Positions 2,743 through 52,786 of a stretch of DNA of 53,459 nt are shown here, in pieces. The notes below the pieces were generated by a model. The model had not been told where the DNA came from. It made no database searches and saw only the letters and a program-made list of their open reading frames with translations. A program made the position numbers and the translations under genes. Numbering within the stretch: the first letter of the stretch is position 1; every line of letters starts with the position of its first letter. Origin of the DNA: Anaeromyxobacteraceae bacterium (GTDB taxonomy: Bacteria; Myxococcota; Myxococcia; Myxococcales; Anaeromyxobacteraceae); NCBI GenBank assembly GCA_035719085.1, contig DASTGK010000456.1:1-53459 (forward strand), in the 5' to 3' direction.

Positions 2743-3312
2743 ATGCCCCGGCCCTCCGAACATGCGCGGAAGAGCGCCTACGATTGGGTCGGCCGGCTGA
2801 TCACCCAGCACGTCGACGCCTGCCCCTGGCTCCCGGACCAGCGGGACGCGGTGGAGGGGATCCGTTCTGCGATGCTGGCGGCGGCGGAGGGTCCCTTCAG
2901 CTCGACAGCCGACGAGATCTCCGAGTGCGCCCCAGGGCGCGGTCGGGAGGCGGAGGCCGGTGCCGACCTGTCGGACCGCGCACTGGAATCGCTCCTGGCC
3001 CATCCGACCGAGCACCAGGACTGGGTCCTGTCGCTCCTTCGCGAGGTGCATCGGCGCCGCGCGGTCCCGAAACGTCACGATGACGCTTCGGGGAGGCTGG
3101 AAGTGCCCGCCTCCGACCCCCCTCGGGCGGGCGAGGGCGAGCCGGCGGAGGAGGGTGATTCCAAGCCCGCCCCCTCCGCCGGCAGCTCGATCTCCATCTG
3201 CGACTTTGCGGCGCTCTACCAGGAGCACGCGCGAGGGTGCGAGCGGTGCCGTGACGCCCTCGCGGTCGGCGAGCTGGTCACGCGGGTCGCCGCGGCGGGA
3301 GCGGGGCGATGA
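2743..3312 (+). CDS. Hypothetical protein with a C-terminal HxxxCxxC (zinc anti-sigma-like) motif. It carries palindromic element copy 1 in-frame.
   Basis: C-terminus ICDFAALYQEHARGCERCRDAL. The palindrome at 3066-3092 is read as PKRHDDASG. Confidence 0.55.
   Translation: MPRPSEHARKSAYDWVGRLITQHVDACPWLPDQRDAVEGIRSAMLAAAEGPFSSTADEISECAPGRGREAEAGADLSDRALESLLAHPTEHQDWVLSLLREVHRRRAVPKRHDDASGRLEVPASDPPRAGEGEPAEEGDSKPAPSAGSSISICDFAALYQEHARGCERCRDALAVGELVTRVAAAGAGR
3066..3092. repeat. 27-bp palindromic element, copy 1 (12-bp arms, CGA loop, 1 mismatch).
   Basis: cccgaaacgtca-cga-tgacgcttcggg. Confidence 0.85.
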
Positions 3313-3617
3313 CCTGCTCCTACCTGGAGGAGGACGTGAGCCGATTTTTCGACCGCGAGATGGACGCCGCCGCGGACCGCGCCTTCCTCGGCCACCTCGT
3401 TGACTGCGACACGTGCAACGCGCGACTGGAGTCGCTGATGCAGCTCGACGCCCTCCTGGAGGGGCGGGCAGTGCGCATCAAAACCGCGAAGGTCGACGTG
3501 ACGGTGCCTCCCCGCGCGCGGTCGGAGCGCTGGGAGCGCCTGGGGCTCGCGGCTCTGGCAGTGGTGGCGCTGGCCGCGCTCGCGTGGGCGGTGAGCACTC
3601 TCGGGTGGCGGCCATGA
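3309..3617 (+). CDS. Membrane-anchored zinc-finger anti-sigma factor-like protein (zf-HC2 / ZAS type).
   Basis: N-terminal DREMDAAADRAFLGHLVDCDTCNARL (HxxxCxxC). C-terminal hydrophobic helix LGLAALAVVALAALAWAV. Confidence 0.65.
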   Translation: MTCSYLEEDVSRFFDREMDAAADRAFLGHLVDCDTCNARLESLMQLDALLEGRAVRIKTAKVDVTVPPRARSERWERLGLAALAVVALAALAWAVSTLGWRP

Positions 3618-3916
3618 CGCGCGCCCCGCTGAAGCACCTCCGCCGCTCCGCCCGGGCGCTCAAGGCCGCGGTGACGAGTTTGGAGAACGCGCTCGCGTCC
3701 GGCCAGTCCGCCCACGGCCCGGAGTGGGCCCTCCAGCTCGCGCAGCTCCGCCGCGTGGTGGCGGAGTACGCGCGCCTCATCGGCGCCGAGCGGCGGGCGC
3801 TGGACGAGCCCCACGCCTTCGTGGCGTCCCGGTTCGGCCTCTGGTGCTTGCGCTGCGGTGGCGTCCGCGACCGGGCGGAGCTGCACCCGCCGGAGTTCGC
3901 GGGAGGTGCTCGGTGA
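3614..3916 (+). CDS. Hypothetical protein.
   Basis: ATGA overlap at 3614-3617. 100 aa. Confidence 0.5.
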   Translation: MTRAPLKHLRRSARALKAAVTSLENALASGQSAHGPEWALQLAQLRRVVAEYARLIGAERRALDEPHAFVASRFGLWCLRCGGVRDRAELHPPEFAGGAR

Positions 3917-7066: not shown

Positions 7067-7230
7067 GGCCGGTGGAGCAGGTCGCGCGGGAGGTAGTGCG
7101 CCGGGCAGTGGAGTGGCAGTTTCGTGCCTTCCGCGCTCTCCCGAGCGGGACGCCCCTGGCGAGCGCGGTGGACAGGCTGGTCCTCGCCGAGAGCAGGGCC
7201 GTGCCGGTGTCGACTGGAGGTCGTCCGTGA
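7063..7230 (+). CDS. Hypothetical protein.
   Basis: ATGA overlap at 7063-7066. 55 aa. Confidence 0.45.
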   Translation: MRPVEQVAREVVRRAVEWQFRAFRALPSGTPLASAVDRLVLAESRAVPVSTGGRP

Positions 7231-7841
7231 GCCCGATGGTGACTATCCGCCTCCGGGAGAGGGACGCGGAGGAGATCGCCGCCGGAGAGCCCGCCGCGCT
7301 CCAGCGCGCCCAGCAACTCGTGGGCGCGGAGCTGGCGCGCCGCCGCAGCTCTCGGGCGAAGCGGGCGGCCCGAAGCGTCACGATGCCTCGTCGGGAGGTG
7401 GCGGAGCTCAAGCCCGCCTCCGGGCAGTGGGGGACGAAGGCGCTGCGTGCGGCGCTCTGGACGCGCGCGGAGGGGCGGTGCGAGTGCGGCTGCGGGCGTT
7501 CGCTGATCACCTTCGCCACGGCCGAGATGGACCACTTCTGGGGTCGAGCGAAGGCGCCACAGACGCCTGAGACGTGCTGGCTGCTGGCGCGCGAGTGCCA
7601 CCGACGGAAGACCGACAACATTCCCTCGCGCACCCACTGGCTGAATCTCTTTCTGTGGCACCTGGAGTCCCATGGCTTCGGGCGCTCGGACTCGGCGCGC
7701 CGGGCGCGGGCGGTGCTGGAGGCCGAGGAACAGCTCGAGGCGGCGGAACAGCGCAGGGTTCGCGAGGCGGAGCGCGCGGTGGAGCAGGCCGAGGACCTGG
7801 CGGAGCGCGCGCGGCGCGCGGAAGGAGCGAGCGATGCCTGA
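7227..7841 (+). CDS. HNH endonuclease.
   Basis: GRCECGCGRSL...EMDHFWGRAK...LLARECHRRKT. GTGA overlap at 7227-7230. A degenerate palindrome copy lies at 7369-7395. Confidence 0.7.
   Translation: MSPMVTIRLRERDAEEIAAGEPAALQRAQQLVGAELARRRSSRAKRAARSVTMPRREVAELKPASGQWGTKALRAALWTRAEGRCECGCGRSLITFATAEMDHFWGRAKAPQTPETCWLLARECHRRKTDNIPSRTHWLNLFLWHLESHGFGRSDSARRARAVLEAEEQLEAAEQRRVREAERAVEQAEDLAERARRAEGASDA
7369..7395. repeat. Degenerate copy (9 of 12 arm positions) of the 27-bp palindromic element.
   Basis: cccgaagcgtca-cga-tgcctcgtcggg. Confidence 0.5.
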
Positions 7842-11168: not shown

Positions 11169-12421
11169 TGCACCTGCCCTGGACTCAGGTGGCCAACGAG
11201 GTCCTCGACCACGCCGCGCCGGAGCTGGCCGTGGCCCTGGCCTGGCACGAGGACCCGGAGATCAGCGAGGCGCTGGCCCTGCGCGGGCTGGTGCAGCTCT
11301 TCCGGTGGGCTCGAGAGCGCTGCCCCAACGACCGCCCCCCGTCTGCCGGGGCGATCATCACCGGGTCAACCGCCGGACGCCTCATCGCGCGGGCGATGGG
11401 CTGGCGCGGCGACCCCGAGGCGTTGGTGGACGCGCTCGAGCGGGTGCAGCCGAGCCCCATCGTGTCACGGATGGATGGCGGGGTGCTGATCTGCGGCCTG
11501 GACCGCTACGACGGCGCCTGGCGGAAGAACTACCGCGACGCCGCCGAGGCCTGGGACGCGCGCGTGAAAGCCGCCGCCGAGCGCATCCCGGTCGGAATGC
11601 CCACGGAAACCGCACGGAAACCGGGCGCAGTCCGCGCGGTTTCCGACCGCCAGACGCAGACGCAGACGCAGACGCAGAAAGAAGAAGATCCCCCCTCGCG
11701 TGCGCGCGCGGGAGCGGTCGCACATCCGCCGCCACCAGCGCTTATCTCGCCCGCCGCCGACGACCTGCCCGCGCGGATGGACGAGATCCACCGCCGAGCC
11801 CGCAGCCGCCCGCTGGAGTGGGGCCCCGCCCGACACCGGATGGCGCGCGAGCGCGAGCTGGGCGACCTGGCCGCGCAGCACGGCGACGCGGAGCTCCTCC
11901 GACGCTTGGAGAACGCGCTCACCTGCCCGGCGGGGAAGTTCCCCTACTTCGCCGAGGTGGGCGACCTCGTGAGGCACTGGGGTCGGTACGCGGAGCCCCT
12001 CCCCGAGGAGCCCGGTCGGCGCCCGAAGACAGCGAACGAGGTGCTCGGGATGCCCCCGGTCGTCCCACGAGAGACGCCGGCAGAAGCGGAGCAGCGAGTG
12101 GCGGCGGAGCGCGCTCGCCGGGAGGAGCTGCGGCGGCAGAACCCGCGCGCGGCGAAGGTGGTCGACCTCGCCCAAGCGCGCGCGGCGCGCGCTCCGCCCG
12201 AGGCTCGCGAGGAGGCGCTGGCGCTGGCGGCGCTCCGGGCGCTTCCGTTCGGCGAGCGGCGCCGCATCTACGCGGAGGCGCGACGGCTCGCGCGGGGCAA
12301 CGGACTGACGCCGCGGGCGCGGAGGGTTGCGCGGAGGTTCCACATCGAGGCGCTGGTGGCGGCCGGGCTGGGCGTCAAGGCGCACGGGTTGCAAGCACTG
12401 GCTGACGGAGGCACGCGATGA
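11168..12421 (+). CDS. Hypothetical protein with an internal (cagacg)x4 repeat. Function unknown.
   Basis: ATG at 11168 (TGATG junction). QTQTQTQTQ linker at 11651-11674. Confidence 0.55.
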   Translation: MHLPWTQVANEVLDHAAPELAVALAWHEDPEISEALALRGLVQLFRWARERCPNDRPPSAGAIITGSTAGRLIARAMGWRGDPEALVDALERVQPSPIVSRMDGGVLICGLDRYDGAWRKNYRDAAEAWDARVKAAAERIPVGMPTETARKPGAVRAVSDRQTQTQTQTQKEEDPPSRARAGAVAHPPPPALISPAADDLPARMDEIHRRARSRPLEWGPARHRMARERELGDLAAQHGDAELLRRLENALTCPAGKFPYFAEVGDLVRHWGRYAEPLPEEPGRRPKTANEVLGMPPVVPRETPAEAEQRVAAERARREELRRQNPRAAKVVDLAQARAARAPPEAREEALALAALRALPFGERRRIYAEARRLARGNGLTPRARRVARRFHIEALVAAGLGVKAHGLQALADGGTR

Positions 12422-13335: not shown

Positions 13336-13680
13336 ATGGAGCTCCCGACGGAGGAGGACGTGCTCGCGGCACTGGTGCTGGAGTGGCTGCTGTACGCGGA
13401 CGGCGGGACGCTCGGCGTGCCCGATAACTTCGAGCTCCCGCCGATGGTGGATGCCGTCGTGCACGAGATGTTGTGCGACTGGGACCTTGAGCAGGCCATC
13501 GCGGACTCCGAGCGACGTCTGGAGGTGGAGCGGGCCGAGCGCGCGGTGCTCAGTATGCTTCGCCACGGCTTCCGCCCGTTCTCGCGGCGCGAGCGCCTGG
13601 ACGATCTGGAGCAGGAGCCCACAGCGGACGAGGTGCTCCGCTGGGCTTGGACGCGCCTTCACCCCACGAGGTCCGCATGA
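13336..13680 (+). CDS. Hypothetical protein.
   Basis: 114-aa acidic ORF. Confidence 0.5.
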   Translation: MELPTEEDVLAALVLEWLLYADGGTLGVPDNFELPPMVDAVVHEMLCDWDLEQAIADSERRLEVERAERAVLSMLRHGFRPFSRRERLDDLEQEPTADEVLRWAWTRLHPTRSA

Positions 13681-15203
13681 GCGCCGACGCCATCACCACC
13701 CGCGAGGGCGCGCCGCTCGAGCTGAGCATCGAGAAGGCCTTGGCGCTCGTCCGGGACTCTGAGGACCTGCACGAGCTCAAGGACCTCCGGGACCAAGGCC
13801 AACTCCTCGCCGGGCTCGCCCGCGCCCGCAACGCCTCTCGCGACGTGGCCAACGGCGCCGCGCAGGTGAAGTTGGAGGCCGAGCGGAAGATCGGCGCCGT
13901 CCTGGAGGAGCAGCGCCGCCGCGGCACCCGGGCTCAGCCCGCCGACAACCTCCGCCGGGGCCCGAAGCGTCACGATGACGCTTCGAAGGCGCAGGCCGTC
14001 GCCAAGCCCCCGACGCTGGAGGAGCTGGGCATCGAGCCCAACGCGGCCCGCCGCTACCAGGCCGTCGCCCGCGCCCCCGAGGAGAAGTTCCGCGAATACA
14101 TCCGGGCCCAGAAGGAGCATCCGGACGGGGAGATCACCACCGCCGGCTTCCTCCGGGTGGCGATGTCGCGCAACCCCCACGCAGCGAGCAACGTCTCTAG
14201 CGACCCGGAGAAGAACGAGCGCTTCACGCCGGTGGAGCTGGTCTCCGCCCTGCACCGGGAGTTCCGCTTCACGGTGGACGTGTGCGGGCACCCTCTCGCG
14301 CCGGCGAGCAAGCTGATCGGCAAGTTCTACACGAAAGAGGACGACGCCCGGACAAAGGACCTCACCGGCGAGCGGCCGTTTTTCAACGTGCCGTTCGACG
14401 AGCTGGAGTTCTGGGTGAAGTTCACCCATGAGCTCGTGGCCAGCGGGAAGGTGAAGCGGGCCGTCCACGTGATGCCAGCCAGCCGGACGGAGCAGCCCCT
14501 GTGGCAGCGGTGGATCGAGCCGTACCGACTGGACCGGAACGGCTCGGGCGTGCGCGCGCGCTTCCTGCACGGCGGCAGCTACACGGGCAACCTGGAGGAG
14601 GATGGGTCGCGGACGCGCTACGGCAACCCGGACGACCCCGAGGGGCTGGACGTGGGCTCTCCGGGCTGGGCGAGCGTCATCGTCATCTGGGAGGGGCCGC
14701 TGCGGCGGTCGCCCGAGATGCCGCTCCCGGCCGACGAGCAGGCGACCAGCGGCGCCGAACTACCGGCCGCCCGTCGTGCGCTGCTGGACGCGGCCGGCAA
14801 GGCGGTCGACGCAGCGACGCCGGAAGCCAGGGCCGCACTCGCCCGCGTGGGCATCAACGCGCTCGTGGACGAGGCCACCGGCTACCAGGAGTCCCGGCCA
14901 GCGGGCGCCCTGCGCGAGATGCTCACCGGCGAGGCCGACGACCCGCTCCCGTTCCTCCAGGAGTCCCTCGCCGCCTACCGCTCCGGAGATGACGTGTGCC
15001 CCGGCTGCGGTCGCGCCGATAAGGAGGTCCGCGCGTCCAAGGCGGGCTGGCGCCATCGAGGCGGTCACCTGTCCATCTGCGGACGCTGCAACCGAGCCGG
15101 GAAGAAGCCCGCCGAGGTGTCGAAGTCGGACGAGGCGGCCTGGAAGGCAGCGAAGGACGAGGCGCAGAAGAAGCCGGCGCGGAAGGCGCGCGGACGGAGG
15201 TAG
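13677..15203 (+). CDS. Multidomain N6-adenine DNA methyltransferase (phage Dam type), with an N-terminal helical or HTH-like region and a C-terminal P63C-like segment and zinc ribbon.
   Basis: ERFTPVELVSALHREFRFTVDVCGH...FFNVPFDELEFWV (methylase core). INALVDEATGYQ. CPGCGR...CGRC. The palindrome is in-frame at 13961-13987. Confidence 0.7.
   Translation: MSADAITTREGAPLELSIEKALALVRDSEDLHELKDLRDQGQLLAGLARARNASRDVANGAAQVKLEAERKIGAVLEEQRRRGTRAQPADNLRRGPKRHDDASKAQAVAKPPTLEELGIEPNAARRYQAVARAPEEKFREYIRAQKEHPDGEITTAGFLRVAMSRNPHAASNVSSDPEKNERFTPVELVSALHREFRFTVDVCGHPLAPASKLIGKFYTKEDDARTKDLTGERPFFNVPFDELEFWVKFTHELVASGKVKRAVHVMPASRTEQPLWQRWIEPYRLDRNGSGVRARFLHGGSYTGNLEEDGSRTRYGNPDDPEGLDVGSPGWASVIVIWEGPLRRSPEMPLPADEQATSGAELPAARRALLDAAGKAVDAATPEARAALARVGINALVDEATGYQESRPAGALREMLTGEADDPLPFLQESLAAYRSGDDVCPGCGRADKEVRASKAGWRHRGGHLSICGRCNRAGKKPAEVSKSDEAAWKAAKDEAQKKPARKARGRR
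13961..13987. repeat. 27-bp palindromic element, copy 3 (10-bp perfect stem, CGA loop), in-frame in the methylase gene.
   Basis: cccgaagcgtca-cga-tgacgcttcgaa, read as PKRHDDASK. Confidence 0.85.
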
Positions 15204-16012: not shown

Positions 16013-16738
16013 CTACAGCGCCTCCGCAGTCGCGGCCCGCCACGCCGTCACCGGCACATCCCATGCGGTCCCAGCGATCGGAACGTCCACGGGGCCGCCG
16101 TCGAACGTGCGACGCGCGCCCGGCGTCGAGAGCGCGGTGGTGTAGTCCGACTCGGTGGCGTAGACCCGCCGGGTCTGCGTCGCGCGCGCGCCCGGCAGGG
16201 CGCTGGCCATCTGCGCCCGCGGGTCGTTCGCCTCCACGCGCACGGTGCGCTCCCGCACCGACACCACCGGGAGGCGCACTCCCCGCGGCGACGCCGCCAG
16301 ATCGCGCTGGAGCGCCGCCAGCTCCCGCGCCCCGAGTTGGCGCGCGCCAGTACGGGGCGCGTCGTCGTGCACCGGGACGACCCCGCGCACCCAGCCGTCC
16401 GCATGGAGCGCCAGCTCCGGGGTGGACGCAAGCGAGCCCGGCGCATGCGGCGCGTCCCGCCACACGGCGACGGGCGCCCCGACCCCCGCCGGCAGGTCGC
16501 CCGCGCCGAGGCACGACTCCAGCAGCGCCCGGATGCGCGTCGAGGCCGCCACGGACGCCGGGGCCCGCGCCGGCCGCGCCCCGTGGAGCCGGGTACTGAC
16601 GTCCGAGTGGTACCGGACCCCCTTGCGGGCCAGCCTCCATACCCGGCCGTCCTGCCCCTGCACCAGCAGCGGCGTGCCCGCCGGCACGTCCGCCGTGAAG
16701 TCGTAGCCGTCCAACGGGTGCTTCTTCGCGGTCTTCAT
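16013..16738 (-). CDS. Hypothetical protein; first gene behind the duplicated strong promoter.
   Basis: ATG at 16738 after ggagggaagaagcc. 241 aa, with no recognisable motif. Confidence 0.6.
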   Translation of the reverse strand: MKTAKKHPLDGYDFTADVPAGTPLLVQGQDGRVWRLARKGVRYHSDVSTRLHGARPARAPASVAASTRIRALLESCLGAGDLPAGVGAPVAVWRDAPHAPGSLASTPELALHADGWVRGVVPVHDDAPRTGARQLGARELAALQRDLAASPRGVRLPVVSVRERTVRVEANDPRAQMASALPGARATQTRRVYATESDYTTALSTPGARRTFDGGPVDVPIAGTAWDVPVTAWRAATAEAL

Positions 16739-16839
16739 GGCTTCTTCCCTCCGAGTCCCCGGCGAGCCGCCGGGGTGCCGAGGCGTCATTGCCTCGTCGA
16801 TGATGTATATATAAACAGTCTGGGCCGGGGTGTCAAGCG
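16730..16839. repeat. 110-bp promoter and leader cassette, copy A (identical to 51769-51878).
   Basis: Exact match read in both places. It spans the -35, the -10, two leader hairpins (16757-16775, 16779-16796), the RBS and the first three codons ATG AAG ACC. Confidence 0.95.
16808..16836 (-). promoter_or_regulatory. Near-consensus sigma70-type promoter: TTGACA, 17 nt spacer, TATATA.
   Basis: The minus strand reads cttgacaccccggcccagactgtttatatatacatc. The -10 sits in the near-palindrome TGTTTATATATACA. Confidence 0.65.
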
Positions 16840-16876
16840 GCGTCGAGCCGAATTCTGTGCTGGACGAGCCTGCTCC

Positions 16877-16892
16877 GGACGATTTCCATCAC
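16877..16892 (+). promoter_or_regulatory. Conserved 16-nt motif GGACGATTTCCATCAC, site 1, 19 nt upstream of the groES ATG.
   Basis: The same 16-mer occurs at 23826-23841 and 39975-39990. Confidence 0.6.
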
Positions 16893-16911: not shown

Positions 16912-17214
16912 ATGGACAAACTCAGGCCGTTGGGTGATGGGGTGCTGGTGCGGGTGGCTCAGGCCGACGCCACCAGCCAGGGCGGCATCATCATCCCGGA
17001 CGCTGCGAAGGAGAAGCAGCGACGGGGCGAGGTGCTGGCGGCGGGTCCGGGCCGGTGGGTGGCGGGCCACCAGGACGGCCAGGCCGAGCACTTCCACCCG
17101 GTCGGGGTGCTCCCGGGCGAGGTGGTGCTCTACGACGCGCTTGCGGGCGTGGACGTGGGCCCGGACTTGCTCCTCCTCAGGGAGTCGGACATCCTCGCCG
17201 TGGTGGAGAAGTAG
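16912..17214 (+). CDS. groES: Co-chaperonin GroES (Cpn10) homologue.
   Basis: MDKLRPLGDGVLVRV...QGGIIIPDAAKEKQRRGEVLAAGPG...ESDILAVVEK aligns along its whole length with bacterial GroES. Confidence 0.85.
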   Translation: MDKLRPLGDGVLVRVAQADATSQGGIIIPDAAKEKQRRGEVLAAGPGRWVAGHQDGQAEHFHPVGVLPGEVVLYDALAGVDVGPDLLLLRESDILAVVEK

Positions 17215-20241: not shown

Positions 20242-22298
20242 TGCCCCCCGTTCAACGCGCTGGCGACGACACCCAGGAGGGCGAGTTCGCGGACACGCCC
20301 GCTGGATGGGCGCAGCTCTGGGCGCTGGAGTTCAGCGCCGCCCGCGACGCGCTCAAGCGCTGGCAGAAGCGCGCGAAGAAAGTGGACGAGCGCTTCCGCG
20401 ACGACCGCGAGGCGAAGGACCGTACCGACACCCGGTGGAACCTCTTCACCGCCAACGTCCGCACCCAGCAGAGCATCCTCTACGGCAAGGTGCCGCAGGT
20501 GAGCGTCTCCCGGCGCTTCGCCGACGCGAAGGACGACGACGCGCGCGTGGCCGGGGAGATGCTGGAGCGGCTGCTCAACACAGACATCGAACGCGACGGC
20601 GACGGCTACGCGCTGGCGCTCCAGCAGGCCGCCCAGGACTACCTCTTGCCCGGCCTCGGCAACGCGCGCATCCGGTACGAGTTGGAGGAGGAGGACACGC
20701 CCGAGACGCCGGAGCGCCGCGACGAAGCCGGCAACGTCATTGCTCCAGCCATCGAGGTCGGCAAGCGGAAGGTGAACGAGGACGTGGAGGTGGACTACGT
20801 CCACTGGCAGGACCAGCTCTGGAGCCCCGCCCGCGTCTGGCAGGAGGTGCGCTGGTGGGCGTTCCGCGCGGAGATGTCGCGCGACGCGCTGGTGAAGCGC
20901 TTCGGCGAGCTGGGCAAGTCCGTCCCGCTCAACGCCAAGAAGCCCAAGGGCGAGGAGCGCACGCGCGGAGACCAGCCCGCCAAGCCGAGCCCGTGGGGCC
21001 GCGCGGAGGTGTGGGAGGTCTGGGACAAGGAGCGCCGCAAGGTGTGGTGGTACGTCGAGGGCTTCGGGAAAATCCTCGACTCCAAGCCAGACCCGCTCGG
21101 GCTCCAGGGCTTCTGGCCGTTCCCCCGGCCAATGGCGGCGAACATCACCAACACCGCGTTCGTCCCCACGCCGGACTTCGTCCTCGCTCAGGACATGTAC
21201 GACGAGATCGACCTCGTCTCGACGAAAATTACCGAGCTCCAGGACGCGCTGAAGGTGGCCGGCGTCTACGACTCGAAGAACGAGGGCGTCCAGCAGCTCC
21301 TCGAGAACGCCGGCCGCAACGTCCTCATCCCGGTGAAGAACTGGGGCAACTTCGCCCAGGGCGGCGGGCTCAAGGGCGTCGTCGACTGGATGCCCATGGA
21401 GCAGGTGGTCGCCGTCCTCAACGCCCTGCGCGAGTACCGCGCGGAGCTGATTCAGGCGCTCGACCAGGTGGAAGGCACGTCCGACTTGATGCGCGGCCAG
21501 GCCGCGGACGCAGCGGAGACGGCCACCGCGCAGGGCATCAAGGCGCGCTTCGGGTCCGTGCGCATCCAGGCCAAACAGGACGAGTTGGCCCGGTTCGCCT
21601 CGGAGCTGCAGTGGCTCAAGGCACAGGTCATCGCCAAGTTCTTCGACCAGGAGACCATCCTGGAGCGGAGCAACGCCGCGTACATGTTCGACGACATGGC
21701 GGTGGCGCGGCGGGCGGTGGGGCTCATCAAGGAGAAGCTGGCGCGCGAATACCGCGTCCAGGTGAAGCCGGAGAACGTCAGCCTCCAGGACTTCGCGGCG
21801 CTCAAGCAGGAGAAGATGGAGGTGCTCGGCGCGGTGGGCCAGTACCTCACCACCATCGGGCCGCTGGCGCAGCAGGCGCCCGGCTCCGCACCGTTCCTCC
21901 TCGAAATCCTCCAGTGGACGGTGGGCGGACTCCGCGGCGCGTCGACGCTGGAGGGCATCATCGACCGGGCGGTGACGGCGGCGAAACAGGCCGCGCAGGC
22001 GCCTCAGGGCCAGCAGGCACCGGACCCGAAGCTCCTTGCCGCCCAAGCGAAGATGCAGGCGCAGCAGCAGAAGGCCATGCTCGACGAGCAGAAGGCCCAG
22101 GCGGACCTCCAGCGCGACGGGCTCCGGCACCAGATGGACGTGCAGGCCGAGACGGCGAAGCAGGAGATTCAGACCAAGCAGAACATCCAGGAGGAGAAGA
22201 TGCGGCTCGAGCTGAAGGCGCAGGCGAAGGCGGCGGAGCAGGCCCTGGCGCCGGTGCGGCCGGACCCGCTCGTGGTGGCGCCCCGGAGGTTGCCATGA
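20241..22298 (+). CDS. Portal protein.
   Basis: 685 aa, immediately downstream of terL. It has a long helical Gln/Ala/Lys-rich C-terminus, typical of portals in size and position. Confidence 0.75.
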   Translation: MPPVQRAGDDTQEGEFADTPAGWAQLWALEFSAARDALKRWQKRAKKVDERFRDDREAKDRTDTRWNLFTANVRTQQSILYGKVPQVSVSRRFADAKDDDARVAGEMLERLLNTDIERDGDGYALALQQAAQDYLLPGLGNARIRYELEEEDTPETPERRDEAGNVIAPAIEVGKRKVNEDVEVDYVHWQDQLWSPARVWQEVRWWAFRAEMSRDALVKRFGELGKSVPLNAKKPKGEERTRGDQPAKPSPWGRAEVWEVWDKERRKVWWYVEGFGKILDSKPDPLGLQGFWPFPRPMAANITNTAFVPTPDFVLAQDMYDEIDLVSTKITELQDALKVAGVYDSKNEGVQQLLENAGRNVLIPVKNWGNFAQGGGLKGVVDWMPMEQVVAVLNALREYRAELIQALDQVEGTSDLMRGQAADAAETATAQGIKARFGSVRIQAKQDELARFASELQWLKAQVIAKFFDQETILERSNAAYMFDDMAVARRAVGLIKEKLAREYRVQVKPENVSLQDFAALKQEKMEVLGAVGQYLTTIGPLAQQAPGSAPFLLEILQWTVGGLRGASTLEGIIDRAVTAAKQAAQAPQGQQAPDPKLLAAQAKMQAQQQKAMLDEQKAQADLQRDGLRHQMDVQAETAKQEIQTKQNIQEEKMRLELKAQAKAAEQALAPVRPDPLVVAPRRLP
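22108..22161. repeat. 54-bp exact direct repeat, copy 1 (inside the portal 3' end).
   Basis: tccagcgcgacgggctccggcaccagatggacgtgcaggccgagacggcgaagc is also at 23150-23203. Confidence 0.95.
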
Positions 22299-22687
22299 GC
22301 GAACGCAACCGCGCGACGCCGTGGTGGCTGGGTGGCGTCGTGCGCCCCAGCGTCCGAGGAATCAATGCGGCCTCCATGGACGCTGGCCGGAGAGCTGCGG
22401 CCGAGCGCCATGAGCGGGCGCTCGCGCGGGTGTTCTCCGGAGAGCCCATCCTTGACAACCGGGGCTCGTTCCGTGCGGCCCTTGGGCGCGACGGTGAGAC
22501 CGTCATCCAGCGCGACACCGTCATCGCGAGATATCGCAACGAAGATACGGCGCTGGCGACTTTGCGCGCGTCTCTTGCTGGCGTGTGGGCTGGGATGAGC
22601 CGGGCGACGGCCGAGGTCCAGCCGCGCAAGCCCAAGCCGAACAAGCCACGCGCCCTGAGGAGCAAAGCGCGGAGGGCCACGCCATGA
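22295..22687 (+). CDS. Hypothetical protein.
   Basis: ATGA overlap with the portal stop. 130 aa, with somewhat lower GC3. Confidence 0.5.
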   Translation: MSERNRATPWWLGGVVRPSVRGINAASMDAGRRAAAERHERALARVFSGEPILDNRGSFRAALGRDGETVIQRDTVIARYRNEDTALATLRASLAGVWAGMSRATAEVQPRKPKPNKPRALRSKARRATP

Positions 22688-22938
22688 GCCTCATGCGCCA
22701 TCTTGACTCGATGCAGGTCACCCAGAAACGGCAGGCACGGATGCGCCCCCGATGCTGGATGATCGGGTGCCCGCTCGGCCACGGCCATATCGGCCGTCAT
22801 GCTCGTGGCGCGCGGGTCCCGAGCCAGGTTGAAATGCTCCAGCGCGCGTATCAAGAGGCCGGTCCGACCATCGCGGACAACGTCACCAAGAACAACGCCT
22901 TGTTGGCGCTCTTCCTTCGGCGGGGCGCTACGCCATGA
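22684..22938 (+). CDS. Hypothetical protein whose C-terminus copies the major capsid N-terminal motif.
   Basis: ...GPTIADNVTKNNALLALF compared with capsid ...GEIADNVTKNNALFSRL. 32 of 35 nt are identical (22870-22904 vs 26692-26726). Confidence 0.45.
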   Translation: MSLMRHLDSMQVTQKRQARMRPRCWMIGCPLGHGHIGRHARGARVPSQVEMLQRAYQEAGPTIADNVTKNNALLALFLRRGATP

Positions 22939-23417
22939 GCGTCCACGACTGCCCGTGCTGCGAGTGCGTAGAGGACGAGGATGCGCCGCCCTCCCCGGAG
23001 GAACTGGCCGCAGCGCGCGAACGCGAGGAGCGCCAGATGGCGGAGAGCATGACTCCGGCCCGTACCTCGCTGGAGCAGGCGGGGCGCGACGCGGTGACGG
23101 CGGCGAAGCAGGCGGCCGGGCTCCCGCCCGACTACGTGTTCCGTGAGCTTCCAGCGCGACGGGCTCCGGCACCAGATGGACGTGCAGGCCGAGACGGCGA
23201 AGCGTTGGTGACTCGTCTCGCCCACGCGCTGCGGGACGCCATCCAGTATAGCGGCAACAACGTGCATTGCTGGTATCCGGATCCGGGGTGCCTGCGCGCC
23301 GAGAGCGGCAGCACCCTCCGCCGGAACGGAGTCCCGGTCCCGGAGGAGCGGCATCCGGAATGCGTTCGTAACGAGGCGCTGCTCAGAGAGGCCGGACAGC
23401 TCCCGGAGGAGGCATGA
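22935..23417 (+). CDS. Hypothetical protein (CPCCEC N-terminus) carrying the 54-bp portal-derived patch in a foreign frame.
   Basis: GC3 is high on both sides of 23150-23203 but low inside it. Confidence 0.45.
   Translation: MSVHDCPCCECVEDEDAPPSPEELAAAREREERQMAESMTPARTSLEQAGRDAVTAAKQAAGLPPDYVFRELPARRAPAPDGRAGRDGEALVTRLAHALRDAIQYSGNNVHCWYPDPGCLRAESGSTLRRNGVPVPEERHPECVRNEALLREAGQLPEEA
23150..23203. repeat. 54-bp exact direct repeat, copy 2.
   Basis: Identical to 22108-22161, but read here in a different frame. Confidence 0.95.
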
Positions 23418-23773
23418 GCCGCCGCCGCTACCGCTACGTGACGAACGAGGCCGGCGAGGTGGTGCCGGTCGAGGTGAGCGCCAGCTACGAGGGCCACGGG
23501 GATGCCTCCGGCCGCGTCGAGCTGATGCTGGACTCCCACTACGACGGCCTCCGGGCCACGGACGGGACGCCCATCGACTCCCGGGCGAAGCACCGCGAGT
23601 ACATGCGCCGGAACAACCTCACCACCGTCGACGACTTCAAGGAGACGTGGGCGAAGGCGGCCGAGCGCCGCGCCCAGGTGTTCACCGAGGGCGGCACCGC
23701 AGCGGACCGTGCTTCCCGGCGCGCTGCCGTGGAGCGGGCGTTCGCGCAGGCCGAGCGCAGCGGCCGGCGGTGA
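23414..23773 (+). CDS. Hypothetical protein.
   Basis: ATGA overlap. 119 aa. Confidence 0.55.
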   Translation: MSRRRYRYVTNEAGEVVPVEVSASYEGHGDASGRVELMLDSHYDGLRATDGTPIDSRAKHREYMRRNNLTTVDDFKETWAKAAERRAQVFTEGGTAADRASRRAAVERAFAQAERSGRR

Positions 23774-23777
23774 ACGC

Positions 23778-23802
23778 CCGAAGCATCACGATGACGCTTC
23801 GG
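23778..23802 (+). terminator. Palindromic element copy 4, placed 5 nt after a stop codon. Candidate terminator or processing hairpin.
   Basis: ccgaagcatca-cga-tgacgcttcgg. Confidence 0.5.
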
Positions 23803-23825
23803 AAAGCACGGTCCAGCCCCGCGAC

Positions 23826-23841
23826 GGACGATTTCCATCAC
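23826..23841 (+). promoter_or_regulatory. Conserved motif GGACGATTTCCATCAC, site 2, 57 nt upstream of the ATG at 23899.
   Basis: Exact 16-mer. Confidence 0.55.
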
Positions 23842-37000: not shown

Positions 37001-37104
37001 AGCCCCAGCCCCAGCCCGAGCCCTCGCCCGAGCCCGAGCCCTCGCCCTCGCCCCAGCCCGAGCCCTCGCCCTCGCCCGAGCCCCAGCCCCAGCCCCAGCC
37101 CGAG
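37001..37104. repeat. Hexanucleotide tandem repeat ((A/C)GCCC(C/G/T), about 17 units) between convergent genes.
   Basis: agccccagccccagcccgagccctcgcccgagcccgagccctcgccctcgccccagcccgag... Confidence 0.9.
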
Positions 37105-37420: not shown

Positions 37421-37592
37421 CGAAACTCGCCCCGTCACCTCGGACCTGGCGGGGCCCAGAGGGCGAGGCGACCTCACGCTGCGAGGATGGATTGACCCCC
37501 GGACCGCCATCCGGGAACCTGTGACCATAATGCACGACTCCCGCGCCGACTGCAACTCATGAACCGAGCGCCGTGGGCGCCACATGTAGGCA

Positions 37593-37620
37593 ATAAAAAA
37601 GGCGCCGTTGGCGCGGCGCC
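37593..37620 (-). terminator. Canonical rho-independent terminator on the minus strand (7-bp GC stem followed by TTTTTTATT).
   Basis: The minus strand reads ggcgccgcgccaacggcgccttttttatt, a rare U-tract terminator in this GC-rich genome. Confidence 0.6.
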
Positions 37621-37731
37621 TCCGGGTCCCCAGGGGGAACCTGCTCGTATGGACTGAGCAGACACAGCCTCCCACAAGAGAGCCCGACAAACAAGTCCGC
37701 GGCTTTGGGTCGCCCCAGATCGCCGTTGTCC

Positions 37732-37758
37732 CCCGAAGCGGCATCGTGCCCCTTCGGG
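37732..37758. repeat. Variant copy of the palindromic element (opposite orientation, TCG loop).
   Basis: cccgaagcggca-tcg-tgccccttcggg. Confidence 0.6.
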
Positions 37759-37887
37759 CCCCGACGTTCCGATGGGTGGATCCAGGCCGACGCCCGGCGG
37801 GGCCAGTGAGCATTCCCGAGTGCGCCCTGGGGCGCGGTCGGAGAATTCCATCGCCGGTCGGGCTGGGGCCGTGGTAACACGGCCATC

Positions 37888-39941: not shown

Positions 39942-39990
39942 GTGATGGAAACCGTCCGCGCCCGGCCCCTGGACGGACGATTTCCATCAC
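39942..39990. promoter_or_regulatory. Inverted repeat of the 16-nt motif (GTGATGGAAACCGTCC, 17 nt, GGACGATTTCCATCAC) in the divergent region between the tail fibre and 40010.
   Basis: The arms match at 15 of 16 positions. The right arm is motif site 3, 19 nt upstream of the ATG at 40010. Confidence 0.6.
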
Positions 39991-40009
39991 AGGGGCGACG
40001 CTTCGGGCC

Positions 40010-46935: not shown

Positions 46936-47998
46936 GCTCGTCGACCCGTCCGGTAACCCCATCCCGCCCAGGAGCGCCGCGCTCGCCACGCAGCCGGTCC
47001 GCATCGACGCCGGCCGCCTGGACCTGCTGGACCCGGAGCTCCCGGACGAGGGGATGGTGCGCCAACTGGAGCAGCGCGCCCTCTTCCGCGAGCGCATCAT
47101 CCAGCTCGCCCTGCGGCAGACGGCGGCCACCCAGTACGTCATCCACCGCGCCGAAGGCGACGAGGCGCGGGAGTCCGTGTACCCGATGGGCGCCGCGGCG
47201 GACGCCATGTTCAGCTTCCTCGGGCTGACCTGGGCCTCCGTGGTCGAGTCCACCGTGGACGGGCGCCCGTCGTACCGGCGCGGCGAACAGAAGTGGCAGT
47301 CGGAGATCCGCTCCGTCCCCGTCAAGGACGGGAAAGGCAACGTCGTCGGCGAGGACCGCTACTACTGGGTGAAGAGCGGACTCTGGTCCCGCGATGCGCT
47401 GGTGGCGCTGGCGGAGGGCAAGCGCCTGATTGGGGTCGGCTACTCCAAGGACGAGCCCACCACGGAGATGAACGCCTTCGAGAACCTGAAGTCCCGCGCC
47501 GTCCGCGAGGTGCTGGGCCTGAAGGGGAAGGACCGCACCTGGTACAAGGTGCAGGGCCTCGACCTCTCCGCCGCGCGCGTGGCGGAGTTCCAGGACCGCA
47601 AGGCCGGCGCCTCCAGCGACCCGGACCAGGCCGTCATCAAGTGGGGAAAGGCCAAGGGCAAGAAGGTGTCGGAGTTGTCCGACGACGACCTCCGCTTCTA
47701 CACGGAGCGACAGGAGAAGGACTGCGCGGACCCGGAGAAGGCGAAGTTCAAGCCGGAGCGCCTCCTCGCCGCGCTGAAAGCGGAGGCCGAGCGCCGCGCC
47801 GCGAAGCCGACGGAGGACGCGGAGAGCGCGGAGGAGTTCGACCGGACGATCATCGCTCTGCGCGAGGAGATGCTGTCCCAGCGCGTCGACGCCACGAAGC
47901 TCGACGCTTACGTGGCAACGCTCCAGACGCTGGAGCAGGCCCGGCGCGCCCTAGAGCATTACCGCGGGAAGCGGGCGAAAAAGACCACCTCGCCATGA
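46913..47998 (+). CDS. Putative single-strand annealing or recombination protein. Function is inferred from position only.
   Basis: GTG at 46913 after aggagg. 361 aa, directly downstream of the exonuclease. Confidence 0.45.
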   Translation: MDQQTPSKLVDPSGNPIPPRSAALATQPVRIDAGRLDLLDPELPDEGMVRQLEQRALFRERIIQLALRQTAATQYVIHRAEGDEARESVYPMGAAADAMFSFLGLTWASVVESTVDGRPSYRRGEQKWQSEIRSVPVKDGKGNVVGEDRYYWVKSGLWSRDALVALAEGKRLIGVGYSKDEPTTEMNAFENLKSRAVREVLGLKGKDRTWYKVQGLDLSAARVAEFQDRKAGASSDPDQAVIKWGKAKGKKVSELSDDDLRFYTERQEKDCADPEKAKFKPERLLAALKAEAERRAAKPTEDAESAEEFDRTIIALREEMLSQRVDATKLDAYVATLQTLEQARRALEHYRGKRAKKTTSP

Positions 47999-48123
47999 AC
48001 TCCGGCGCGCGCAAGTGCCACTACGGCGACGTGGGCGACCTCGCACCGCGCGACGAGCGCCTGCGCGCGCTCCGGGCTTTCGTCTTCTCCCGGTGGTACG
48101 GTGCCACCCGCGCGCAGGTCTAG
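47995..48123 (+). CDS. Small hypothetical protein.
   Basis: ATGA overlap. 42 aa. Confidence 0.35.
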   Translation: MNSGARKCHYGDVGDLAPRDERLRALRAFVFSRWYGATRAQV

Positions 48124-48131
48124 GCCGACCT

Positions 48132-48156
48132 CCGAAGCGTCATCGTGACGCTTCGG
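48132..48156. terminator. Perfect copy of the palindromic element (11-bp stem) between convergent operons. Candidate bidirectional terminator.
   Basis: ccgaagcgtca-tcg-tgacgcttcgg. It lies 9 nt after the stop at 48123 (+) and 11 nt after the stop at 48167 (-). Confidence 0.6.
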
Positions 48157-48166
48157 GCGGCCCACC

Positions 48167-48469
48167 TCAGCTCGGCTCCAGCGCGTTCTGCACGAGCGAC
48201 CGCAGCTCCGAGTCCTGGAGCGCCTGGAGCAGCAGCGCCGCCCGGAACGCCTCCCGGCACCACGCCGGCACGGTGACGCCCTGGTGCTCGGCTGCGGTGG
48301 TGATCGCCCGCTCCCAGCTCGCCGGCAGCCGAACGGGGTCCAGGCGCGCGCCTTCGCCCGGAGCCGCTCGTGGTGCGTGGGGCGCGGCGCGGTAGCAACG
48401 CTGACAGAGCCCGGCACGGTAGGCCTTGCGCCCGTCGCCCCTGGAGCACAGGCTCCCCTCACCCGGCAT
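48167..48469 (-). CDS. Cys-motif plus ribbon-helix-helix protein. Paralogue of 15535-15732.
   Basis: LCSRGDGRKAYRAGLCQRCY then ERAITTAAEHQGVTVPAWCREAFRAAL. Confidence 0.6.
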   Translation of the reverse strand: MPGEGSLCSRGDGRKAYRAGLCQRCYRAAPHAPRAAPGEGARLDPVRLPASWERAITTAAEHQGVTVPAWCREAFRAALLLQALQDSELRSLVQNALEPS

Positions 48470-51267: not shown

Positions 51268-51777
51268 CTACGCCTCCACCATCGCAGCGGCGTCGGCGAT
51301 GACGCGGGCGCACCGGACTCGCGCCGACGCGTCCCCCGCGAGGGCGCGGTCGCACAGCTCGACCTGCGCGAGATCGCCCGCAGCCCCCGCCTCGGCGCGG
51401 AGCGCCTGAATCTGCTCGTCGGTGGCGGTCGTGCCATCGGGCAGGAAGCCCCACAGCTCCAGCAGCGCCGGAATAGCGGCGAGCCGCGTCGAGATGGCGG
51501 CCCGCGCCCGGTCGATCTCCTGCCGCGCCCGGATGATGCCCTCGGACACGGTCTCCGGGTACCCGTTCGCTCGCTCGGCCTGCTCCAGCGCGACGTGGGT
51601 GGCGTCCAGATTCCGGAGCCCGGCCTCCAGAGCGCGCGCCTCCGCCGCGAACACCGTCTGGCCATCGGACGAGAGCAGCGGGAACGCGGTCTCCAGCAGG
51701 AGTTCAATGGCAGCCGCAGCGCGCTCGCGAACGGTGGCGCTGGCCCACTGCTCCTGAATGGTCACGGTGGTCTTCAT
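51268..51777 (-). CDS. Hypothetical helical protein; first gene behind promoter cassette copy B.
   Basis: ATG AAG ACC start inside the 110-bp repeat. 169 aa. Confidence 0.6.
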   Translation of the reverse strand: MKTTVTIQEQWASATVRERAAAAIELLLETAFPLLSSDGQTVFAAEARALEAGLRNLDATHVALEQAERANGYPETVSEGIIRARQEIDRARAAISTRLAAIPALLELWGFLPDGTTATDEQIQALRAEAGAAGDLAQVELCDRALAGDASARVRCARVIADAAAMVEA

Positions 51778-51878
51778 GGCTTCTTCCCTCCGAGTCCCCG
51801 GCGAGCCGCCGGGGTGCCGAGGCGTCATTGCCTCGTCGATGATGTATATATAAACAGTCTGGGCCGGGGTGTCAAGCG
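51769..51878. repeat. 110-bp promoter and leader cassette, copy B (identical to 16730-16839).
   Basis: Exact match. Confidence 0.95.
51847..51875 (-). promoter_or_regulatory. Near-consensus sigma70-type promoter: TTGACA, 17 nt spacer, TATATA (copy B).
   Basis: Same sequence as 16808-16836. Confidence 0.65.
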
Positions 51879-51915: not shown

Positions 51916-52164
51916 CTACCTGGGCTCGGTCGCCATGCAGTACGGACGGTCCGCGTGGCCCGGCGCGCACTCCGGCGTCGGCGGCCCGCGACGCGCCACC
52001 TCCAGCGCCCGACGCGCCTCCGTCAGCTCGCGTGTCGCCGCCTCGTATTCCGCCTGCGCGCGAGCCAGACGCTGCTCCGCGCTCGTCACGCGCTGCTGGG
52101 CCCGCGCCACCTCCGCCGGAGTACCGCTCAGCATCAGCCCCACCGCCACCATCAGCATCTTCAT
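51916..52164 (-). CDS. Small membrane-anchored or secreted coiled-coil protein.
   Basis: MKMLMVAVGLMLSG followed by a coiled coil. ATGA overlap with rusA. Confidence 0.5.
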   Translation of the reverse strand: MKMLMVAVGLMLSGTPAEVARAQQRVTSAEQRLARAQAEYEAATRELTEARRALEVARRGPPTPECAPGHADRPYCMATEPR

Positions 52165-52580: not shown

Positions 52581-52786
52581 GGCGCCGGCCTCCGCAGGCA
52601 CCCCGGGCACGCCACCGCCCAGCTCGGCGCCCGCTCCCACCGTCCCATCCCGGAGCGCTCTCCGCACGCTGGCTCCGTGTCGATGAAGCGGTGTGCGTGC
52701 TGGCGGACCTTGCCCATCCGCCAGTACCAGACGCCGGAGGACTGGGAGACGATCTGGGGTGGGGGCCGGGGGTCGGGCGAGGTCAC
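52577..52786 (-). CDS. Small zinc-ribbon-like protein.
   Basis: GTGA overlaps at both ends. ACGERS...ACPGC. Confidence 0.45.
   Translation of the reverse strand: MTSPDPRPPPQIVSQSSGVWYWRMGKVRQHAHRFIDTEPACGERSGMGRWERAPSWAVACPGCLRRPAP

Follow-up and report, generated by a model that had tools for sequence, protein, structure and literature searches.

A 27-base hairpin palindrome specific to an Mx8-like phage, a probable regulatory signal for a phage factor

The window analysed here, that is the whole stretch of 53,459 nucleotides, is a complete phage genome (53 kb, 71% GC) related to the Myxococcus phages Mx8 and Mx9, the likeness residing in the major capsid, portal and terminase proteins only. 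Its dispersed 27-base hairpin palindrome is a genuine feature, specific to this Mx8-like phage. As a cis-signal the element belongs to the phage, forms a hairpin and is probably regulatory, a phage factor being its reader, rather than a host repeat or a simple insertion. As to what the signal does, the best reading, which I put forward tentatively, is that of a hairpin selected for its structure, read by a phage-specific factor and punctuating transcription.

The element reads CCCGAAGCGTCA-CGA-TGACGCTTCGGG (27 nt). A pattern search allowing up to three mismatches returned exactly six copies, the same six that a preliminary description of this DNA had picked out by eye, against 0.00 expected from 100 shuffles, and this excess counts for the hairpin-signal reading. 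A covariance model of the palindrome family, run on the window, found no additional copies, and an Rfam scan of the whole window gave no matches at the gathering score. The copies and the features around them are the following.

Copy 1: 3066-3092, plus strand; 1 mismatch; read in frame as PKRHDDAS in the orphan ORF 2743-3312.
Copy 2: 7369-7395, plus strand; 3 mismatches; inside the HNH ORF 7113-7841, where it reads RSVTMPRRE.
Copy 3, the founder: 13961-13987, plus strand; 2 mismatches; read in frame as PKRHDDAS in ORF 13677-15203.
Host gene of the founder: 13677-15203, plus strand; helical N-domain, disordered linker, HTH, Dam-like N6-adenine methyltransferase domain and Zn-ribbon tail.
Copy 4: 23777-23803, plus strand; 2 mismatches; intergenic.
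Late-promoter-like 17-mer CGGACGATTTCCATCAC: 23825-23841, plus strand; adjoins copy 4, as context and not as part of the palindrome.
Intrinsic terminator, the only canonical one in the genome: 37590-37623, minus strand; 10-bp stem followed by TTTTTTATT.
Copy 5: 37732-37758, minus strand; 3 mismatches; non-coding.
Right-arm 11-mer half-site GACGCTTCGGG: 39997-40007, plus strand; exact and isolated, 6 nt after another late-promoter motif.
Copy 6: 48131-48157, minus strand; 1 mismatch; between convergent genes.

Three of the six copies lie inside ORFs, and the frames previously reported for them (PKRHDDAS in ORFs 2743-3312 and 13677-15203, SVTMPRRE in the HNH gene) were recovered. Copy 1 sits between the N-terminal domain and the C-terminal HxxxCxxC motif of its ORF, for which a homology search returned no homologues. 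Copy 2 is degenerate, as already suspected: 17 nt are exact (left arm, loop and TG), the right arm is broken and the sequence folds no better than shuffled sequence; homologues of its HNH ORF align through it, with no clean nine-codon gap. Copy 5 lies in no ORF and is corrected here to non-coding sequence, the DUF6948 gene starting with the ATG at 37420. The half-site, listed earlier at 39998-40008, is an exact match indeed, one base off in its coordinates; it is either a remnant or a product of chance, and its membership in the family is uncertain. Single half-sites with at most one mismatch are no more frequent than chance.

The founder copy codes for residues 95-103 of its protein, in the linker between N-domain and HTH; the AlphaFold pLDDT is below 50 over residues 86-108, the linker that holds the palindrome-coded residues, and the linker peptide at this point is variable among homologues. 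All 14 homologues, whose proteins are 38-56% identical, have a palindrome at the same linker position. Its centre is 3 nt long in 12 of the 14 lineages, with a 5-nt loop in the other two, and the loop sequence varies between phages (CGA, GCC, GCT, CGC, GCG, TGA). The stem sequences of the homologues differ as well, while 88.4% of cells pair, against 68.7% when shuffled and 24-43% when the partner is slid, and nine of the 12 stem pairs have changed on both sides across the homologues. This shows that selection preserves the pairing of the two arms even as the bases of the stem, and the peptide they encode, go on changing. The best-conserved pairs are the closing pairs beside the 3-nt centre, which is to be expected of a stem and is unusual for a dimer operator.

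Since homologues align straight through the founder copy, each with its own palindrome there, the founder is, on this alignment, an old conserved element and not a nine-codon insertion; the idea of a MITE-like in-frame insertion at 13961 has thus to be given up. The preliminary description had also considered that the same nine residues might be encoded elsewhere by non-palindromic DNA, and the founder gene displays the opposite, its residues differing and its palindrome being kept. The repeated PKRHDDAS is a by-product of a nucleic-acid signal and not a protein motif, which should serve as a warning in annotation. A homology search with the N-terminal 170 residues alone gave no matches, nor did the host protein have a significant match in a solved-structure sequence search or in Foldseek (full model). 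Neither Mx8 nor Mx9 has a member of the palindrome family or a homologue of the methyltransferase gene 13677-15203, and none of the reference genomes encodes a relative of that gene. An exact scan with a 22-mer consensus, degenerate at 2 positions, yielded no match in 185,579 reference species genomes and none in a viral-contig collection. The palindrome is therefore not a host REP, which the preliminary description had named as a ground for refutation.

Copies other than the founder are partly lineage-specific. Copy 4 is missing at the syntenic place in the relatives L005 and L010, and is, as judged from this synteny, a lineage-specific gain; the 17-mer, which begins 21 nt beyond the end of copy 4, is conserved in both relatives. 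Another relative, the P0010 phage, has three copies of a stem version of its own, the second of which is roughly syntenic with copy 1 while the third occupies a convergent gene junction, as copy 6 does. Copies share 22-26 of their 27 bases within the window and 20-24 within the P0010 phage, as opposed to 12-19 (about 16) between the two, showing that copies within a genome evolve in concert.

The five sites other than the founder are shown to be of two kinds: some are codon-tolerant, so that nine extra or arbitrary codons can be accommodated, and the rest follow stop codons directly, on the 3' side, where transcription units end. Copy 4 begins 3 nt past the TGA (23771-23773) of ORF 23414-23773. 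Copy 6, which lies at the 3' end of its operon, follows by 9 nt the TGA of the last leftward gene (minus strand, RHH-like, about 48167-48469) and by 7 nt the TAG of the plus-strand ORF 47995-48123; the terminator-like placement that had been noticed for these two copies is thus borne out. Together with the third P0010 copy they stand 3-12 nt past stop codons, where units end or genes converge, which counts for punctuation, as does the fact that in all five copies whose orientation can be judged the CGA centre appears in the local sense strand. The copies between 3 and 24 kb share one strand, those between 37 and 48 kb the other. Copy 5 lies ~110 nt 5' of the canonical intrinsic terminator on the minus strand, and ~85 nt from a variant of the late-promoter motif; the terminator downstream of it supports a minus-strand transcript running through copy 5. 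A mirrored change from T-A to G-C in this copy keeps the stem and lowers the match to the other copies, and counts for the hairpin reading.

Folding energies of -13 to -22 kcal/mol were obtained for five of the six copies, whichever strand was folded; their stems are of 10-12 bp, perfect or with a single mismatch, and their loop is of 3 nt. No copy is followed by a U-tract (the tails being GAGGCT, AAGCAC, GGTCGG and similar), and a terminator scan reports none of the six, though it did detect the site at 37623-37590; this counts against the punctuation reading, as does the negative Rfam scan. With a single canonical terminator in the genome, transcripts must end otherwise; the folds of other convergent junctions disclosed no clear shared rule.

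On the preferred reading, the element would adopt a hairpin fold when single-stranded, the transcript being the simplest place for this, and a postulated phage-encoded factor would recognise both its sequence and its structure. The hairpin would then punctuate transcription by 3'-end formation, as a roadblock, or as a processing or stability barrier, presumably at the ends of the leftward operon and of the packaging block, with an attenuating site within the early operon; new copies may arise by short-patch copying from existing ones. That the trans-acting factor has to be assumed, since a plain terminator or stabiliser needs no sequence identity among copies, counts against this reading. Some observations speak against a hairpin in the transcript. 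Ribosomes would melt RNA hairpins in the three copies within ORFs, and among the transition-type mismatches in the stems, counted on the sense strand, 15 are A.C and 2 are G.U, the opposite of what a sense-RNA helix predicts. The latter excess, initially taken as evidence for the antisense strand, is partly explained by codon bias, and has been down-weighted because, in this frame, second codon positions face third positions, which are mostly G. Moreover, a centre held strictly to 3 nt in 12 of 14 lineages is no less compatible with a DNA palindrome than with an RNA triloop, and mirrored changes can arise in one step through template switching within the palindrome.

A close rival, to be taken seriously even if it is rather doubtful, is a double-stranded DNA operator, in which a dimeric phage regulator would occupy the 27-bp palindromic sites, repressing or roadblocking, in the manner of L5 stoperators, the conserved inverted repeats of phiC31 or the KorB O_B sites. 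Three candidates for the regulator can be named: the methyltransferase through its HTH module, the XRE-type HTH protein encoded at 2113-2454 and the RHH-like one at ~48167-48469; the copy within the gene of an HTH protein, itself a point in favour, would be an autoregulatory or roadblock site. Several near-identical copies per genome, in a version that differs between phages, are what stoperator sets also display (PMC6550527). A drift in regulator specificity is expected to change both half-sites together, copy 2 retains one half-site intact, copy 4 ends 21 nt before the promoter-like motif and copy 5 has a variant of that motif within ~85 nt. The symmetry, however, is held at nearly all 12 arm positions, including the pairs beside the dyad, whereas HTH half-sites usually constrain 5-7 bp. 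By inspection, variation in the recognition helix of the methyltransferase protein does not follow the stem groups, which is at odds with an operator and counts for a hairpin signal, and the mirrored double change of copy 5 in one and the same genome is unexpected for a single protein specificity.

Less likely is that a single-stranded DNA hairpin or cruciform works in DNA metabolism, either as a replication or priming signal or as the site of a structure-specific enzyme, embedded in a gene next to the replication module by analogy with ori-lambda, the extra copies being secondary. It would agree with a palindrome that is perfect up to its 3-nt centre in 12 of the 14 lineages, with the place of the founder in a linker-coding region two genes downstream of a putative initiator (11189-12421), with mismatches that would turn into G.T wobbles if read on the complement of the mRNA, and with the strand split between the 3-24 and 37-48 kb copies, which fits bidirectional replication from the 50-3 kb region. 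Yet gene direction explains the orientation of the copies equally well and the mismatch bias is explicable by codons. Nor does the founder have local repeats beside it: it is a single palindrome in surroundings of ~73% GC, with no iteron array or AT-rich unwinding region. No primase, HUH endonuclease or Y1 (RAYT) transposase was found among the ~55 ORFs scanned with Pfam, PHROGs or NCBIfam, which are part of the ORF set.

A more elaborate proposal, distinctly improbable, is that strand-specific DNA hairpins are loading or target sites of the HTH-methyltransferase and spread by hairpin-templated conversion with no need of a transposase, making up a self-homogenising system of epigenetic punctuation. 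The hairpin strand would be the complement of the mRNA, on which the mismatches become G.T wobbles, and the master copy would lie in the methyltransferase's own gene. If true, such a system would be a new kind of phage cis-element.

That the palindrome is selfish or neutral, of the type of REPs, MITEs or Rickettsia palindromic elements, appears quite unlikely. It would spread by copy-paste or gene conversion and survive only where harmless, its symmetry being due to template-switch correction and not to function. Near-identical copies with unrelated flanks, the linker or low-complexity regions that they occupy in unrelated ORFs, the apparent gain of copy 4 in one lineage and the decay of copy 2 are all in keeping with it. 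On the other hand, the founder has been kept at one fixed place in 14 of 14 homologues as divergent as 38-56% protein identity, the copies number just six, and a relative repeats their placement at an early-region site and a convergent junction; beyond the hairpin there are neither terminal repeats nor target-site duplications, and no transposase was found among the ORFs scanned. Finally, a host origin of the repeat, as a REP or by mimicry of CRISPR repeats of the host, is close to refuted and was rejected on the negative exact scans of reference genomes and viral contigs. The size and hairpin shape are like those of REPs and palindromic CRISPR repeats, but the element lacks a GTAG/CGTC end tag, has half of its copies in ORFs, and has a 12-bp stem that exceeds the shorter ones of CRISPR repeats.

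Other candidates were rejected as well. A trans-pairing small RNA from the copy-5 region is contradicted by the mirrored change, which keeps that copy's own stem and lowers its match elsewhere. Hairpin promoters of the N4 type would call for a giant or single-subunit RNA polymerase, of which there is no ORF, and copy 6 would drive antisense transcription. A recombinase crossover site needs a centre of 2 or 6-8 nt instead of 3, and the mixed orientations would lead to rearrangements. Programmed frameshifting lacks a conserved slippery heptamer upstream, and the loop ATG was dismissed as a start codon since about half of the lineages lack it.

Phages are known to organise their gene expression through dispersed sites of their own, among them stoperators, conserved inverted repeats and RNase III sites. 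The present case adds a hairpin kept by compensatory change within a methyltransferase coding sequence across a whole clade of uncultured Mx8-like phages, with extra copies that evolve in concert with the master copy and a placement that recurs in a second phage with a different stem sequence. Altogether, 27 nt and three candidate proteins make a compact, testable system for the co-evolution of signal and reader, and for the copying of a bare palindrome to new sites.

Among known systems, the stoperators of Cluster A mycobacteriophages (L5, Bxb1) are many near-identical short sites spread over the genome, which occupy small gaps between genes, at times the genes themselves, and for the most part keep one orientation with respect to transcription, with a consensus for each phage that drifts with phage relatedness (PMC6550527); each site is an asymmetric 13-mer to which a monomeric repressor binds, and a genome has 24-36 of them. 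The present element resembles them in being a set of dispersed near-identical sites with a phage-specific consensus (six in the window, three of another version in P0010), and differs in being a 27-bp perfect palindrome in six copies, whose arms stay complementary from phage to phage and of which one is fixed within a methyltransferase gene. The CIRs of the Streptomyces phage phiC31 are highly conserved 17-bp intergenic sites found in many places and bound by the phage repressor, and they were originally recognised as an autoregulatory operator. They share with the present case a high-GC phage and conserved inverted repeats; here, however, the repeat is 27 nt long and includes a conserved copy in a coding region, and CIRs are not known to have such a copy.

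Repeats that spread offer a poorer match. REPs are short GC-rich hairpin repeats of host chromosomes, extragenic, of high copy number, tagged with GTAG/CGTC and associated with RAYTs, and Rickettsia palindromic elements are 100-150 bp insertions found in frame inside genes. The element shares with both the nature of a short, GC-rich, hairpin-forming repeat, and with the Rickettsia type its in-frame occurrence within genes. Unlike REPs, it has no matches in the reference genomes scanned, begins with CCCG, has its CGTC internally, beside the loop, and lies within ORFs in three of six copies; unlike the Rickettsia elements, its founder copy is not an insertion. A MITE (50-500 bp) has terminal inverted repeats around an internal segment and a target-site duplication, whereas here there is the 27-nt hairpin only. 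Ori-lambda is sited in gene O, in the stretch that codes for a linker whose peptide sequence does not matter, and consists of four iterons and an AT-rich region at one locus. Here too a cis-site is found in the linker-coding part of the gene of a DNA-binding protein, but as a single GC-rich palindrome with dispersed copies instead of an iteron array.

Along similar lines, T7 RNase III sites are intergenic, with longer, irregular stems of about two helical turns and internal loops, and a 12-bp stem is short for RNase III. Vibriophage VIB04 has dispersed hairpin-forming palindromes oriented with transcription, the hairpins forming also in single-stranded DNA (PMC11707656). These phages and the window have in common similar hairpins that are scattered over the genome and follow the direction of transcription; what sets the window apart from T7-type sites are 12-bp stems, perfect or with a single mismatch, a 3-nt loop, and half of the copies in ORFs. 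The GC-rich stem-loop is also like that of an intrinsic terminator, the U-tract being what it lacks. The boxB of lambda nut sites has a 5-bp stem and a GNRA-like pentaloop, occurs in two promoter-proximal copies next to boxA, and co-evolves in sequence with the phage protein. Although stems here are of 12 bp, with variable triloops, and copies stand at operon ends and in ORFs, the likeness is that of a phage-specific hairpin, near-identical in its copies within a genome and oriented with transcription.

A pattern search of the whole window with up to 3 mismatches returns exactly six copies of the 27-nt palindrome, and none in 100 shuffles; they are the six that the preliminary description had picked out by eye, in the reading frames and with the peptides given there.

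Copy 1, 3066-3092 (+): within an orphan ORF, between its N-terminal domain and a C-terminal HxxxCxxC motif
Copy 2, 7369-7395 (+): within an HNH ORF
Copy 3, 13961-13987 (+): founder copy, within the HTH/methyltransferase ORF 13677-15203
Copy 4, 23777-23803 (+): flanked by the stop of ORF 23414-23773 and the 17-mer CGGACGATTTCCATCAC
Copy 5, 37732-37758 (-): non-coding; read along the minus strand, ~110 nt ahead of the genome's only canonical intrinsic terminator (37623-37590)
Copy 6, 48131-48157 (-): between convergent stops, 9 nt past the last leftward gene (RHH-like in appearance)

On either strand, five copies fold with energies of -13 to -22 kcal/mol; the non-folding one is copy 2, in which 17 bases (left arm, loop and TG) remain exact and the right arm is broken. 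An isolated 11-mer matches exactly at 39997-40007; with the full copies set aside, single arms with up to 1 mismatch are not over-represented in the window. No additional members in the window emerge from a covariance model of the family, which does recover two outside its training set, at L013:8091-8121 and in the in-gene hairpin of L017, both DNA of relatives.

The ORF that carries the founder copy encodes, in order, a helical N-domain, a low-confidence segment (residues 86-108), a helix-turn-helix, a Dam-like N6-adenine methyltransferase (under the Pfam cut-off, yet backed by PHROG 111 and TIGR01712) and a zinc-ribbon tail. Its 14 metagenomic homologues (38-56% identical) align continuously across the PKRHDDAS stretch, with Pro96 invariant, and every homologue whose DNA was examined (obtained for 13 of 14) has a palindrome at exactly the same position, immediately ahead of the TLEELGI motif. 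Twelve of the 14 lineages have a 3-nt centre, and the stems vary, for example CCCCGTCGGCGCA-cga-TGAGCCGACGGGG, CCGGCGACTCA-gct-TGAGTCGCCGG and GCCAAAGGCTCA-gcg-TGAGCGTTTGGC. The earlier suggestion of a MITE-like insertion of nine codons does not hold at 13961, for the homologues align through, each with its own palindrome; judged by this sequence comparison, the copy is an old, conserved element and no insertion. Paired cells amount to 88-89% in the in-register alignment vs 68-69% in shuffles, and drop to 24-48% on shifting the 3' partner 1-3 columns out of register; with both-side changes at 8-9 of the 12 stem pairs, this argues that selection or some correcting process preserves arm complementarity. 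The nucleotides of the founder stem and the encoded peptide both drift, the arms staying complementary; the PKRHDDAS peptide is a by-product.

The N-terminal module of the same protein (13677-14186, aa 1-170; helical domain, linker and HTH) is covered by no Pfam model and occurs very widely across metagenomes (12,006 cluster representatives at E <= 1e-3), standalone or joined to a methyltransferase domain of the Dam-like or MT-A70 kind. In five relatives (L002, L005, L009, L010 and L012) a homologue of the gene at 52161-52640 (-) immediately precedes the HTH-methyltransferase gene; in the window this gene has moved into the leftward operon.

The window comprises 53,459 bp at 71% GC, has no tRNA genes, and an exact 138-bp direct repeat (1-138 and 53322-53459) joins its ends, indicating that the phage genome is complete and either circular or terminally redundant. 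It encodes small and large terminase subunits, portal, major head protein and tail or lysis proteins. The Myxococcus phages Mx8 and Mx9 show synteny with its structural block, and their major head proteins share 64% identity with its own. Codon-position GC and a codon-usage caller give the following layout.

~1.8-37 kb (+): long rightward block
Start near 1 kb, over the junction, to 48167 (-): leftward operon
37-48 kb: mixed region

Further repeats were observed. An exact 110-bp repeat (16730-16839 and 51769-51878) holds, on the minus strand, TTGACA, 17 nt, TATATA, a leader, GGAGGGAAG and ATGAAGACC, namely one strong sigma-70-type promoter with leader, duplicated before the minus-strand genes 16013-16738 and 51268-51777. 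An exact 54-nt direct repeat (22108-22161 and 23150-23203, 1,042 bp apart) lies in the portal gene 3' end and in the region 22298-23414, the latter without a strong gene call, and ~17 hexamers GCCC(C/G/T)(A/C) are arrayed at 37002-37103, between the convergent stops 36984 and 37115.

The surroundings of the dispersed copies differ. The HxxxCxxC motif of the copy-1 ORF (2743-3312) is a zf-HC2, as in anti-sigma factors; the ORF after it (3309-3617) has a weak zf-HC2 match, and both are just downstream of an XRE-type HTH gene (2113-2454). Homologues of the HNH ORF have neither a hairpin nor a clean 9-codon gap at the copy-2 position, reading GCC CGG AAG CGG GCG, in partial likeness to the left arm. 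As described before, copies 4 and 6 sit just after stop codons. The 17-mer next to copy 4 occurs four times (0.08 expected), ahead of late gene blocks.

16876-16892 (+), 23825-23841 (+), 39974-39990 (+) and 39942-39958 (-): 17-mer CGGACGATTTCCATCAC, preceding the cpn10/terminase block, the scaffold and head block, and a divergent gene pair

The 17-mer probably serves as a late promoter, recognised by a phage-directed polymerase specificity. Two relatives (L005 and L010) keep a near-identical motif in the syntenic gap and have no hairpin there, so copy 4 is a lineage-specific gain. A GroES-like (Cpn10) gene, 16942-17214, lies directly ahead of the small terminase gene. Copy 5 and the terminator share a non-coding gap of 470 bp. 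The stretch 37590-37830 (-) may give rise to a small non-coding RNA that includes the hairpin; its fold is no better than that of shuffled sequence (z = -1.2).

A second phage (IMG/VR contig UViG_3300049789_000040, 28.5 of 41 kb covered), which carries the homologue P0010, has three copies of its own version, CCAAAGgCGCA-nnn-TGCaCCTTTGG.

In-gene copy: within the P0010 gene
Early copy: five codons ahead of a small ORF's stop, with homologues of window genes 3309-3617 and 3605-3916 downstream, a position in rough synteny with window copy 1
Convergent intergenic copy: abutting a stop codon, like window copy 6

Copies share 22-26 of 27 bases within the window and 20-24 within the second phage, vs 12-19 between the two; in-gene copies of different phages share 15.6/27 on average. 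The copies thus evolve in concert inside each genome. For the remaining relatives, the DNA covers 8-10 kb upstream of the gene, stopping short of the copy-1 region.

Two facts need a joint explanation, namely cross-phage arm complementarity at nearly every stem position and within-phage identity among copies, and the mechanism is what I infer. The former argues for intrastrand pairing, as do the best conserved stem pairs adjoining the 3-nt centre, the mirrored T-A to G-C change in copy 5, which preserves its own stem, and a recognition helix of the host protein that does not track stem groups; the latter argues for a sequence-specific reader or ongoing short-patch conversion. Positions right after stops at transcription-unit ends, in a genome with one canonical terminator, point to transcription punctuation. 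The best reading, tentatively put, is that a hairpin would form, most simply in RNA, be read by a putative phage factor, and serve as a signal for 3' ends, roadblocking or processing, with the in-gene copy at work within the early operon. Against it stand the absence of a U-tract at every copy, the three copies within translated sequence, the need to postulate a reader, a strict 3-nt centre no less suited to a DNA palindrome than to an RNA loop, and sense-strand transition-type mismatches that are A.C 15 times and G.U twice, an excess partly codon-based, since third positions, mostly G, pair with second positions.

A double-stranded operator bound by a dimeric regulator, somewhat unlikely on balance, would account for within-genome identity, phage-specific versions and a site in an HTH gene, with a documented precedent in stoperators, phage-specific dispersed sites oriented with transcription (PMC6550527); yet symmetry at all 12 positions and the mirrored copy-5 change sit less easily with it. 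Far less probable is a replication or priming signal in the form of single-stranded DNA or a cruciform: the perfect palindrome, the location beside replication genes and the ori-lambda analogy suit it, but iterons and an AT-rich region are missing, and no suitable enzyme was recognised among the ORFs scanned. Less probable still, a purely selfish, self-correcting palindrome would fit the unrelated flanks, the lack of copy 4 in two relatives and copy 2 decay, but is at odds with retention in 14/14 homologues and parallel placement in the second phage. A host-derived repeat is, on sequence searches, essentially excluded, the 22-mer consensus (fitting 4/6 copies) being matched exactly neither in the viral-contig collection nor in a set of 185,579 bacterial and archaeal species, one genome apiece, and the element having no match in Rfam.

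Among known systems, the element fails the defining tests of REP/RAYT elements, MITEs, in-frame selfish palindromes, intrinsic terminators, RNase III sites, nut sites and an ori-lambda-type origin. Its behaviour is that of dispersed phage signals such as stoperators, the phiC31 conserved inverted repeats and the T7 or VIB04 hairpins (PMC11707656); what is new is a master copy, conserved and covarying, written into linker codons of the methyltransferase gene, together with the concerted evolution of dispersed copies.
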